Positions 975 to 15,517 are shown, counted from the first letter of the stretch. The stretch is 27,106 nt of DNA from Marine Group I thaumarchaeote (GCA_044358425.1 CP054849.1:745399-772504); one strand, 5' to 3'. Numbers and translations are program-made. Notes: generated from the letters alone by a model not told the origin.

Positions 975-1056
975 ATCATAGTAGGAATTATTTCATTTCA
1001 AAAAGCTTCTGTTTATTCATTCAATAGCAATATACATCACATTAGTCAATCATGGA

Positions 1057-1123
1057 TGCTGATGATTAATCAAACTCTCTAAGCTATACTGATAAAATGA
1101 TGAGCATTGCCGAATTATGAAGC
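1057..1123 (+). ncRNA. Box C/D-like guide sRNA, copy 1
   Basis: C TGATGA 1060-1065, D' CTGA 1089-1092, C' ATGATGA 1097-1103, D variant ATGA 1117-1120, terminal GCT/AGC pairing, T-run after; intergenic; paralog at 13741. Confidence 0.8.
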
Positions 1124-13378: not shown

Positions 13379-13687
13379 ATGTCTGATGAACTTGATGGTG
13401 ACGGTATTGGTGGAGCAGTTTTAGAAGTTTTAACAGGTAATGCATTTAGGTTATTGGTAAGTCACACTAGAAAAGACAACAAAGGAGATTATGGAAAAAC
13501 TGAAAAAATCATAATGGGGTTAATCAAAGAAGAAGAACAAGTACAACGTCCAGAACAAACAAAAGAAGATTTGGAACGCGCATTAATTGGAAAATTTGTT
13601 ACATGTAAAGTTCAATACAGAGATTCAAAAACAGATGCACTAGTATGTAATGTATTTGTTCAAAAGCCACCAGAAGGTTCAGTGTAA
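13379..13687 (+). CDS. Hypothetical protein, possibly a degenerate SNase-like OB fold
   Basis: GAVLEVLTGNAFRL...KEDLERALIGKFV...RD...LVCNVFV follows thermonuclease spacing. Confidence 0.6.
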   Translation: MSDELDGDGIGGAVLEVLTGNAFRLLVSHTRKDNKGDYGKTEKIIMGLIKEEEQVQRPEQTKEDLERALIGKFVTCKVQYRDSKTDALVCNVFVQKPPEGSV

Positions 13688-13740
13688 TTTTAAAAATAAA
13701 ACATAGATAAGAAATATTTAGTTGAAATTTAACAATTATT

Positions 13741-13812
13741 TGCTGATGATTATGTCAACGGGTTCTCTCTGATTTTCCTCAAAACTGATGAATATTGCCG
13801 AATTATGAAGCA
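13741..13812 (+). ncRNA. Box C/D-like guide sRNA, copy 2
   Basis: C TGATGA 13744-13749, D' CTGA 13769-13772, TTTT-cctc-AAAA internal hairpin, C' TGATGA 13786-13791, D variant ATGA 13805-13808, terminal TGCT/AGCA stem; AT-rich TATA-like stretch about 25 bp upstream. Confidence 0.85.
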
Positions 13813-13817
13813 CGAAA

Positions 13818-14174
13818 TTAATACAGTTCAATGAAATTTGCAAGAATAATTGTCATAGTACCATAGACTATCAACGATAAAGCAGCAAGGAAACATCCCC
13901 AGTTTACTGCCTTTTCATATTTGAAACCACTTCTATAATCAAGGAAAATTCCTCGCAGGCCATTAAAGCCATGAACAGATACCAAAATTAGAATTAATTC
14001 TAACAGTATGGCATAAGTTAAGTTCTGATAATTTGAAACTACAAATTCATAAGACAAGGAAGATGCAAAATGTCCTGTTGAAAATCTTACCGAAATATGT
14101 AATGCAACTAATCCAATGGCGCCCAAGGCAGTACCATAATGAATTTTCCTAATGTGACTCTCTCTAATCCTCAA
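13818..14174 (-). CDS. sdhD: Succinate dehydrogenase-type membrane anchor (SdhD-like)
   Basis: Three TM segments; HYGT, ALHI, HGFNGLRGIFLDY. Confidence 0.8.
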   Translation of the reverse strand: MRIRESHIRKIHYGTALGAIGLVALHISVRFSTGHFASSLSYEFVVSNYQNLTYAILLELILILVSVHGFNGLRGIFLDYRSGFKYEKAVNWGCFLAALSLIVYGTMTIILANFIELY

Positions 14175-14946: not shown

Positions 14947-15044
14947 GAAAATAATTATCAGAATTTTAAATAATTAAAAATCACTAAAATCGGTTAATTT
15001 TACAATGGTTTAATTACGACACCATTTGATTAAAGCTAGAAAAC

Positions 15045-15362
15045 ATGTCATACAATAGAGAAGATAGACAAATGTTTGATGCAAAATGCGGTGATTGTGG
15101 TACCGATTGTCAAGTACCATTTCAACCAAAAGAAGATAGACCTGTATATTGCAGAGAATGTTTCCAAAATCACAAACCAGCACCAAGAAATAGAGACAGA
15201 TTTGGTGGCAGACAAGGTGGAAGATTTGGTAGAAGAGATGATAGACCACGAGAAATGCATGATGCAAAATGCGGTGATTGTGGAAATGATTGTCAAGTAC
15301 CATTTCAACCAAAAGAAGACAGACCTGTATATTGCAGAGAATGTTTCCAAAATCACAGATAA
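15045..15362 (+). CDS. Tandem CxxC-x17-CxxC domain protein with Arg/Gly-rich linker
   Basis: Two copies of CGDCG.DCQVPFQPKEDRPVYCRECF; linker RDRFGGRQGGRFGRR. Confidence 0.9.
   Translation: MSYNREDRQMFDAKCGDCGTDCQVPFQPKEDRPVYCRECFQNHKPAPRNRDRFGGRQGGRFGRRDDRPREMHDAKCGDCGNDCQVPFQPKEDRPVYCRECFQNHR
15077..15357 (+). repeat. Intragenic 98-bp direct repeat (15077-15174, 15260-15357)
   Basis: 4 mismatches in 98 bp by manual alignment; offset 183 bp (in frame). Confidence 0.95.
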
Positions 15363-15517
15363 CATAAACAAATTGTTTTGAGAAAAACACTCAAAACTTT
15401 GTAACTTTTATTAAATTTTCAAAAAAACAACTTTGCGGCATAATAAAAAATTTGTAATTAAATAGATCGAAAAAAAATTGATTCCCTAATATATGATGAA
15501 ATTTAATTAATCATAGA

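Follow-up and report, generated by a model that had tools for sequence, protein, structure and literature searches.

The window analysed here, a stretch of 27,106 nucleotides on one strand (G000:C1:745399-772504), comes from the archaeal genome of a Marine Group I thaumarchaeote (G000), which is available on a single contig of 1.36 Mb. It carries two elements on the plus strand (element 1 at 1057-1123 and element 2 at 13741-13812) which share the 5' end TGCTGATGATTA and the 3' end ATTGCCGAATTATGAAGC and which very probably are genes of archaeal box C/D small RNAs (sRNAs), the D guide, the terminal kink-turn (K-turn) and the ribosomal RNA (rRNA) clamp of element 1 being as explained below. According to its complementarity the D guide most likely predicts the 2'-O-methylation of C1799 of the large subunit (LSU) rRNA. 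The elements are real, conserved and uncatalogued, and they represent a known class of RNA in which they stand out by a box variant and an expanded spacer. They do not amount to a new system, and the undescribed system proposed by an earlier sequence-only reading of the window is too strong a description of them.

The shared D guide and its occurrence in relatives

The D guide UUGCCGAAUU directly abuts box D and forms ten of ten possible Watson-Crick pairs with LSU positions 1795-1804. C1799, which aligns with A1672 of the E. coli 23S rRNA, is located opposite the fifth base upstream of box D. The D spacer comprises 13 nt in both elements and 12 nt in 50 of 62 homologues, and the commoner 12-nt D guide GUUUGCCGAAUU forms 12 base pairs with the LSU rRNA. 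The pairing of this 12-nt guide was matched by 2 of 300 shuffled sequences anywhere in the small subunit (SSU) and LSU rRNAs (4.5 kb), that of the 13-mer D guide of element 1 itself by 16 of 300 (all rRNA).

The LSU target region was aligned in 12 genomes including G000, and the segment 1795-1804 complementary to the D guide is unchanged in 11 of them. Genome G155 shows the change U1797A, and the D guide of its sRNA (GCCGAUUU vs GCCGAAUU, the matching A-to-U change) restores the pair; a single sRNA of the shared-D-guide type was found in this genome. This covariation between guide and target is the strongest evidence for the predicted target of the D guide.

In complex with L7Ae, Nop5 and fibrillarin, the RNA would pair through its D guide with the conserved LSU positions 1795-1804/6 at the start of domain IV (E. 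coli positions 1668-1679), where fibrillarin would 2'-O-methylate C1799. The proteins required for this are available to the host, as G000 encodes fibrillarin, a Nop-domain protein and two proteins of the L7Ae family, and fibrillarin is present in 41 of 41 genomes of the host's family. A genome-wide target search tolerating G-U pairs returned dozens of matches of 12-15 bp, as expected at 30% G+C, and was set aside as uninformative.

Following the copy count suggested by the sequence-only reading, the 15-mer ATTGCCGAATTATGA was found at two places in the 1.36-Mb genome and no others, namely in the two elements. A strict scan of both strands for the boxes C, D', C' and D in this order returned three matches, the two elements and one GAAGATGATGA-type (acidic-repeat-like) repeat, and none in two reversed-sequence controls. 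Three matches were also obtained in a K-turn-aware scan, the two elements and one canonical sRNA elsewhere, and again none in the controls. Box order, scans and controls support the earlier assignment of both elements to the box C/D RNAs.

Outside G000, 22 of 24 genomes of the genus carry the D half of the elements (TGATGA-N2-4-TTGCCGAATTATGA), and it was found in none of 16 genomes representing as many other families of the order. With the first base of box D left free, the pattern was detected in 37 of 151 genomes of the family, which represent 6 of 27 genera, and box D reads ATGA in all 42 matches listed for this pattern. A looser pattern, applied to a sample of the class, matched in 65 of 201 genomes; all matches were in the host's family (64 of 114 genomes), none was obtained in 86 genomes representing 13 further families of the class, and one extra match, with TTGA, occurred in G010.

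From the loci 58 instances were extracted, 49 of them distinct, by retrieval patterns in which the flanks GC and AGC had been left free; ten family-B and four family-A genes were added later. Among the 49 distinct homologues, 36 belong to family A (D' core AAGCUAY), 7 to family B, whose hallmark is CAACGGGUUCUCU followed by CUGA and UUUCCUCAAA, and 6 have other D' spacers. In genus g40 a scaffold-only pattern revealed a family-B-like gene together with a third sRNA of the same ends and two different guides. The two elements are more than a chance occurrence and are part of a family spanning 6 genera of the host's family.

A third sRNA type was observed in a sister genus (G143:C3:17123-17180, minus strand, locus L103). 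It has the same GCUGAUGAUUA...AUGAAGC frame and two different guides, its D' guide forming 10 bp with LSU 861-870 and its D guide 10 bp with SSU 810-819 of the rRNA of the window's genome. Since this sRNA has the frame in combination with other guides, the frame seems to be a habit of the lineage which is not specific to the family.

Anatomy of the elements and the predicted terminal K-turn

On the plus strand both elements show the shared ends and the box order C, D', C', D as the sequence-only reading had described them, and its view of the two as paralogues that share the D guide but not the D' guide was borne out. The parse given there was TGATGA, 23 or 19 nt, CTGA, 5 or 13 nt, TGATGA, 13 nt, ATGA and AGC (element 1 and element 2, respectively). 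In the following list the C-D' spacers are given in the preferred register, in which box C is read 3 nt further 3' (shifted register).

1029..1035, plus strand: TATA-like element of element 1, AATATAC (-29 to -23 from G1058)
1058..1123, plus strand: element 1, candidate box C/D sRNA gene of family A, 66 nt; conserved inside GC...AGC, flanks not conserved
1058..1060, plus strand: 5' half of the terminal stem of element 1, GCU, pairing with AGC at 1121-1123
1060-1065, plus strand: box C of element 1 in the sequence-only reading, TGATGA
1062..1068, plus strand: predicted box C of element 1 in the shifted register, AUGAUUA; G1061 would be the unpaired L1
1069..1088, plus strand: C-D' spacer of element 1, 20 nt, with filler (1069-1077) and D' guide UCUAAGCUAUA (1078-1088)
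1089..1092, plus strand: box D' of element 1, CUGA
1098..1103, plus strand: box C' of element 1, UGAUGA, 5 nt past D'
1104..1116, plus strand: D spacer of element 1, 13 nt, with D guide UUGCCGAAUU at 1107-1116
1117..1120, plus strand: box D of element 1, AUGA
1121..1123, plus strand: 3' half of the terminal stem of element 1, AGC
13712..13721, plus strand: A/T-rich TATA-like element of element 2, AAATATTTAG
13742..13811, plus strand: element 2, candidate box C/D sRNA gene of family B, 70 nt
13753..13768, plus strand: C-D' spacer of element 2, 16 nt in the shifted register, CAACGGGUUCUCU conserved
13769..13772, plus strand: box D' of element 2, CUGA
13773..13785, plus strand: D'-C' linker of element 2, 13 nt, with conserved UUUCCUC(AAA)
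13786..13791, plus strand: box C' of element 2, UGAUGA
13792..13804, plus strand: D spacer of element 2, 13 nt, with the same D guide UUGCCGAAUU as element 1
13805..13811, plus strand: box D of element 2, AUGA, and 3' stem half AGC

The D'-C' linker is 5 nt in element 1 and, with 13 nt, long in element 2.

In all 49 distinct homologues UGAUGA is flanked by GC on the 5' side and by UUA on the 3' side, and box D reads AUGA and is followed by AGC. The terminal stem GCU/AGC is possible in all 49 as well, a fourth pair (U-A) could form in 50 of 62 sequences, and the stem is also drawn by ViennaRNA. The terminal stem claimed by the sequence-only reading does exist, then, in the form GCU/AGC, but its U had been counted within box C. 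Read 3 nt further 3', the stem would be followed by an unpaired G and by box C AUGAUUA opposite box D AUGA, which would give sheared G-A pairs, a U-U pair and then a U-A pair replacing the consensus G-C. Box D keeps the U-G-A core and differs in its first base, and it is this base that the shifted register pairs with position 6 of box C as U-A. The odd ATGA box D, which had been regarded as a weak box and which proved invariant among the listed matches, therefore appears to be best explained, and compensated, by the 3-nt shift of box C. Each register includes one deviation of box C from RUGAUGA (AUGAUUA at 1062-1068 and CUGAUGA at 1059-1065).

The motif GCUAAUGA, with a G to A change at the position of G1061, was found in otherwise intact genes of four genomes: G003, G261, G262 (family B) and G126 (other D' arm). 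These variants favour the shift because the change hits an unpaired G there, whereas in the register of the sequence-only reading it hits an essential sheared G. With box C shifted, 7 distinct sequences, all from the genera g33/g38 (15 nt in the earlier count), have a C-D' spacer of exactly 12 nt, and the other sequences of these genera have a longer one; the third sRNA type of G143 has 12 nt as well. Two canonical sRNA candidates of G000 are likewise built with a 3-bp stem and a single nucleotide ahead of a 7-nt box C. Taking these observations together, we consider the shifted K-turn register to be probably the correct one, bearing in mind that it is deduced from invariance and one type of natural variant and not from covariation, which weakens it.

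The two canonical candidates are located outside the window. The first (G000:C1:387281-387337, plus strand, L114) is 57 nt long and reads GGG-U-GUGAUGA, 12 nt, AUGA, UUCG, UGAUUA, 13 nt and CUGA-CCC; its D' guide forms 9 bp with SSU 453-461, which is not above shuffles (134 of 300). The second (G000:C1, about 84854-84906, plus strand, L113 75-127) reads GGC-U-AUGAUGU, 10 nt, CUGA, UUAA, UGAUGA, 12 nt and CUGA-GCC, and its D guide forms 12 bp (8 Watson-Crick and 4 G-U) with SSU 1399-1410, equalled by 28 of 300 shuffles.

The alternative is the register of the sequence-only reading, with box C (C)UGAUGA at 1059-1065, a weakened AUGA box (G-A in place of G-C), little or no stem and true spacers of 23 and 19 nt. 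UGAUGA is a perfect core consensus, the G of the first GA is kept in 47 of 49 distinct homologues, and archaeal sRNAs with very short terminal stems exist. Against this, the purine position of box C would be C in every homologue, UAAUGA in the four genomes mentioned would destroy the first sheared G-A pair in genes that are otherwise intact, and the invariant GC, UUA and AGC would be left without explanation. The terminal stem would furthermore have to be recruited from unconserved flanks and would be 0-3 contiguous bp long; among 62 sequences, 31 would reach 2 bp, 21 a single pair and one 3 bp, and 9 would have none. A 12-nt C-D' spacer would occur in no homologue. This register is accordingly rated as unlikely. 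The family represents a natural experiment on the K-turn register and the box D variant.

The D' arms of both elements

The D' guide of element 1, UCUAAGCUAUA, lies directly against box D' and pairs over 11 bp (9 Watson-Crick and 2 G-U) with LSU 1813-1823, 9 nt downstream of the D-guide duplex. The search for rRNA targets suggested in the sequence-only reading thus led to a match for both guides of this element. Pairing as good as that of the D' arm was reached by 6 of 300 shuffles anywhere in rRNA and by 1 of 2000 within LSU 1735-1865, and for the majority family-A D' guide it was equalled by none of 2000 within the latter region. Across the genera, the family-A guide places U or C opposite G1814 and, opposite U1813, mostly A or G, with C in three; changes at these positions seem mostly to keep the predicted D' pairing. 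With both guides bound, the RNA of element 1 would clamp about 30 nt of nascent rRNA, and its D' arm may also methylate G1817 (A1816 in most relatives).

In the count of the sequence-only reading the C-D' spacer of family A has 14-24 nt, and its box-C-proximal part varies in sequence and length. Conserved and pairing with rRNA is a part of about 8-11 nt next to D', which has the cross-genus core AAGCUAY(R). Because only this D'-proximal part is conserved, the extra spacer length is filler and not guide, and what had been described as long guides of 23 and 19 nt has to be regarded as spacers. The filler next to box C would have grown in the genus of the host, in which the C-D' spacer measures 16-21 nt in the shifted register. 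The notion of a fixed anchor combined with a retargeted guide has to be turned around: the invariant D guide has a canonical spacer, is a perfect complement of the LSU rRNA and covaries with it, and the D' arm appears to be the labile one, since its pairing region is better conserved than its site and since some variants are without an rRNA match.

Element 2 is a paralogue which shares the D guide and differs from element 1 in its D' arm and linker. Both its D' arm and the linker of 11-13 nt are conserved within family B and for that reason seem to be under selection; the linker of family A is variable and 4-5 nt long. The D'-proximal 10 nt of element 2 pair equally well with LSU 1791-1800, which overlaps the D target, and with SSU 1445-1454 (helix 45), in each case by 7 Watson-Crick and 3 G-U pairs. 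Near the D target 32 of 2000 shuffles were as good as this arm, in what was a post-hoc test, and the linker UUUCCUC is complementary to LSU 1790-1796 (by eye and without a statistic). The natural variants conflict, as the gene of G155 fits better to the SSU and the gene of L156 better to the LSU rRNA. For either D' arm, no anchored match scoring at least 7.5 was found in 5S rRNA, RNase P RNA, signal recognition particle (SRP) RNA, the 500 nt preceding the SSU, the rRNA spacer and the 300 nt following the LSU.

Several points weigh against the interpretation proposed here. The AGCU core lies 4 nt from box D' in most genes; element 1 and its close relatives have 3 nt, and a few genes 6-8 nt. Because this distance varies, the predicted D' site moves from A1816 in most relatives to G1817 in this genome and to G1814 in G126 and the L051 genome; such a moving site argues against a conserved D'-guided methylation. 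The D' spacers of 6 of 49 distinct homologues fall outside families A and B, and an anchored rRNA match is absent for the guides of G018 and G002 (other D' spacers), G147 and G131. With 20 nt in element 1 and 16 nt in element 2, the C-D' spacers exceed the archaeal rule of about 12 nt, departure from which lowers methylation in vitro. The D' pairing of element 2 is at chance over all rRNA (128 of 300 shuffles). Moreover, 202,863 of 1,357,507 bases of G000 (15%) are N, which makes searches for more copies or targets in these parts incomplete, and some targets may be unseen.

Part of these observations would be accommodated if the ribonucleoprotein (RNP) were mainly a tether for rRNA folding, in which the D' arm and the linker of element 2 pair with rRNA to aid or time the D-guided event or to keep domain IV open, without methylating. 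In family A the part of the D' arm that pairs is conserved but slides in its distance to D', with the site at 1814, 1816 or 1817, and the C-D' spacer is not kept at 12 nt. In element 2 the D' arm and the linker UUUCCUC are complementary to the purine tract GAGGGAAUU, which abuts or overlaps the D target, and the 32 of 2000 shuffles mentioned above also fit this possibility. Yeast small nucleolar RNAs (snoRNAs) use extra pairing, including that of the D'-C' region, which can overlap the target and raises methylation 2-5 fold according to passages of PMC3116282. On the other hand, boxes D' and C' match the canonical sequences perfectly and are conserved, as would be expected of an active second site, and the duplex of element 1 abuts D' as that of a methylation guide should. 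The D' arm of G155 does not follow the rRNA change at 1797, and the linker pairing amounts to just 5-7 bp. Hence, the tethering or folding role considered in the sequence-only reading survives only for the D' arm, as a minority reading that we hold to be rather improbable. Equally doubtful is its fuller version, in which a C-D' arm freed from the 12-nt ruler serves as a sliding tether of variable length, the linker of element 2 as a second one, and the K-turn is built on the second GA of UGAUGA with a compensated U-A pair. If it were true, the tethers would seize the rRNA beside or over the site guided by D, and these RNAs would be an archaeal counterpart of the asymmetric eukaryotic snoRNAs with extra base pairing.

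The D' arm of element 2 might also guide another RNA, either the segment GGGGAACCUG at 1445-1454 of the 3'-terminal SSU helix 45 or a non-ribosomal RNA. The 10 bp with helix 45 (7 Watson-Crick and 3 G-U) abut D', the fifth position would face the first A of the loop, and the G155 variant GAGGUUCUCU keeps 9 bp with the SSU vs 6 bp with its own LSU rRNA (by eye); the SSU of the window's genome was used in this comparison. The score is, however, the same as for the LSU site and is reached by the same 128 of 300 shuffles, the L156 variant GGGAUUCUCU pairs better with the LSU and disrupts the pairing with the SSU (by eye), and the non-SSU RNAs and spacers listed above contain no match reaching the threshold. 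We consider a target outside the LSU rRNA improbable, and more so than the tether.

Two further candidate targets of element 2 were rejected. Among 32 tRNAs predicted by aragorn, which the sequence-only reading had proposed to search, tRNA-Ser(UGA) was the best with 10 bp to the D' arm; no compensating changes were present in five relatives, and the tRNA change in G053 breaks the pairing. LSU 2407-2416 offers 9 Watson-Crick pairs and 1 G-U pair at a distance of 4 nt from D', but the guide of G007 differs at two of the paired positions although its LSU rRNA is identical.

Gene status, related RNAs and genomic setting

In 61 distinct homologues the consensus AATATA is located at -29..-24 from the G of GC, with 100% A+T at -27 and -26, and family-B homologues have TTATTTAC-like motifs at the same upstream distance. 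This spacing matches the usual distance between TATA box and transcription start in archaea. The conservation of the homologues ends at GC and AGC. A run of at least four T is present within 15 nt downstream in 27 of 61 homologues, and GTTTTT directly follows the gene in element 1 (1124-1129). Each element would form a transcription unit of its own, in which a TATA-like box lying about 26 nt upstream would drive the transcription of an RNA extending from GCU to AGC, about 66 nt long in element 1 and 70 nt in element 2. The transcript ends are, like the RNP assembly, the methylation and the K-turn register, predictions made from the sequences.

Marine metatranscriptomes contain stretches of the window. 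Three contigs of a first study cover 1062-1350, 1063-1305 and 1005-1322, and one contig of a second study, which originates from a relative, spans 889-1102; its 19 differences all fall within 889-1042, and 1043-1102 is free of them. These data are assembled contigs without strand or ends, of which uncovered parts carry no meaning. The contigs indicate presence in RNA libraries and constraint on element 1, and not a small RNA, its strand or its ends. The contig starts at 1062 and 1063 close to the predicted 5' end were not used as transcript start, since they belong to the same study and contigs cannot show ends. A discrete RNA of 66-70 nt is a prediction, which likewise counts against our interpretation, and the source of the contigs could be the 3' end of the minus-strand ORF of 70 amino acids described below.

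Both elements lie between open reading frames (ORFs). Element 1 is flanked by a minus-strand ORF ending at 726-974 and by the minus-strand 70-aa ORF at 1138-1350, element 2 by a plus-strand ORF that ends at 13687 and, on the minus strand, by a Sdh_cyt-like ORF with its stop at 13818. That the elements are no RNA genes but conserved DNA or mRNA elements, for instance a terminator or an L7Ae-binding K-turn at the 3' end of minus-strand transcripts, is hardly credible: element 1 does start 15 nt past the stop of the 70-aa ORF, 6 nt separate the end of element 2 from the neighbouring minus-strand stop, and the RNA-library contigs are without strand, yet box order, guides and rRNA complementarity exist only on the plus strand, the TATA-like box occurs on this strand at a fixed distance in 61 homologues from varied contexts, the guide covaries with the rRNA, and neither strand folds better than shuffles (z between -0.19 and 0.90).

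A comparison with Rfam, which had been suggested earlier, yielded no match at gathering score in the window. The best permissive match of element 1, which does not help our interpretation, was to U54 (RF00206; E = 8, 19.4 bits vs a cut-off of 40), and sR12 (RF01147) reached 15.5 bits vs a gathering score of 38 (E = 9.5). Both are weak, box-driven similarities far below the gathering scores, and the elements are not members of either family.

Archaeal sRNAs typically carry two guides for neighbouring rRNA sites, an arrangement proposed to help folding, and obey the fifth-nucleotide rule (passages of PMC7994747). Like the box C/D sRNAs of Pyrococcus, Sulfolobus and Pyrobaculum as described there, the elements belong to the 50-70 nt class and have the order C, D', C', D, a predicted terminal K-turn and internal K-loop, a D spacer of 12-13 nt, guides that abut their box and two guides for linked sites of one rRNA, and they would need L7Ae, Nop5 and fibrillarin. 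In contrast to these sRNAs, the C/D pair is read as AUGAUUA/AUGA instead of RUGAUGA/CUGA, the C-D' spacer measures 16-21 nt in the genus, no Rfam family matches, and the mesophilic, streamlined host has very few such RNAs (4 candidates in the scan). The series of C-D' spacers from 12 to 21 nt represents a second natural experiment, which bears on the strictness of distances in the archaeal RNP.

An extra base-pairing role has been demonstrated for snR75 and snR76 of yeast, and the elements resemble these and snR70 in combining a catalytic guide with accessory complementarity near or over the site, including the D'-C' region, and in their unequal spacers (passages of PMC3116282). They differ from the yeast snoRNAs by two intact box pairs and by their archaeal size, and an accessory role here would be an extrapolation.

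Full-text literature searches, which did not extend to the supplementary tables of archaeal surveys, found no paper on box C/D guide RNAs of ammonia-oxidising archaea. Such RNAs are barely described for these organisms, which are among the most abundant microbes of the ocean. The prediction derived from the family is a single conserved ribose methylation where LSU domain IV begins, and it is backed by a compensatory change between guide and target. As a lead only, we take the eukaryotic Cm2197/Cm3701 to lie in the same GGGAA-N-UCGGCAAA segment at the start of domain IV, presumably on the C three nucleotides 3' of C1799. In Table 2 of PMC11542601 this 25S/28S modification (yeast snR76) is given as conserved in plants, human and yeast, and the table has no archaeal entry for it.

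The host is an ammonia-oxidising archaeon, because G000 carries archaeal AmoA as well as archaeal SSU and LSU rRNAs and because parts of the window (G+C about 30%) occur in marine metatranscriptomes. At G000:C1:292299-294452 (minus strand; locus L037 1495-3651) a Nop domain and a fibrillarin domain were observed within a single open frame of 718 amino acids. The domains are linked by RREGG and RFDDRRREGG repeats, and the frame crosses a masked stretch of 15 N; the arginine/glycine-rich repeat that ends the Nop5-like part is curious. A fusion of Nop5 and fibrillarin as the cause of the loose spacing was dismissed on account of the 15-N stretch and of the separate fibrillarin frames in relatives, which measure 219-583 aa, mostly below 300, in 40 relatives (full-length matches). 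The fusion in G000 is probably only apparent.

The minus-strand 70-aa ORF (1138-1350) is located directly downstream of element 1 in convergent orientation and has a tail rich in His, Cys and Asp, DDHGCDCGHDHS. With permissive settings, weak C/D-like Rfam matches at chance level are found inside it on the minus strand (snR61, at 1172-1264, and snoR127, E 4-5), and the snR61-like match was rejected. At window positions 15010-15390, for which no tandem repeat was reported, four overlapping ORFs of 101-126 aa on both strands are present within 380 nt, which suggests an unusual composition or a non-coding feature.

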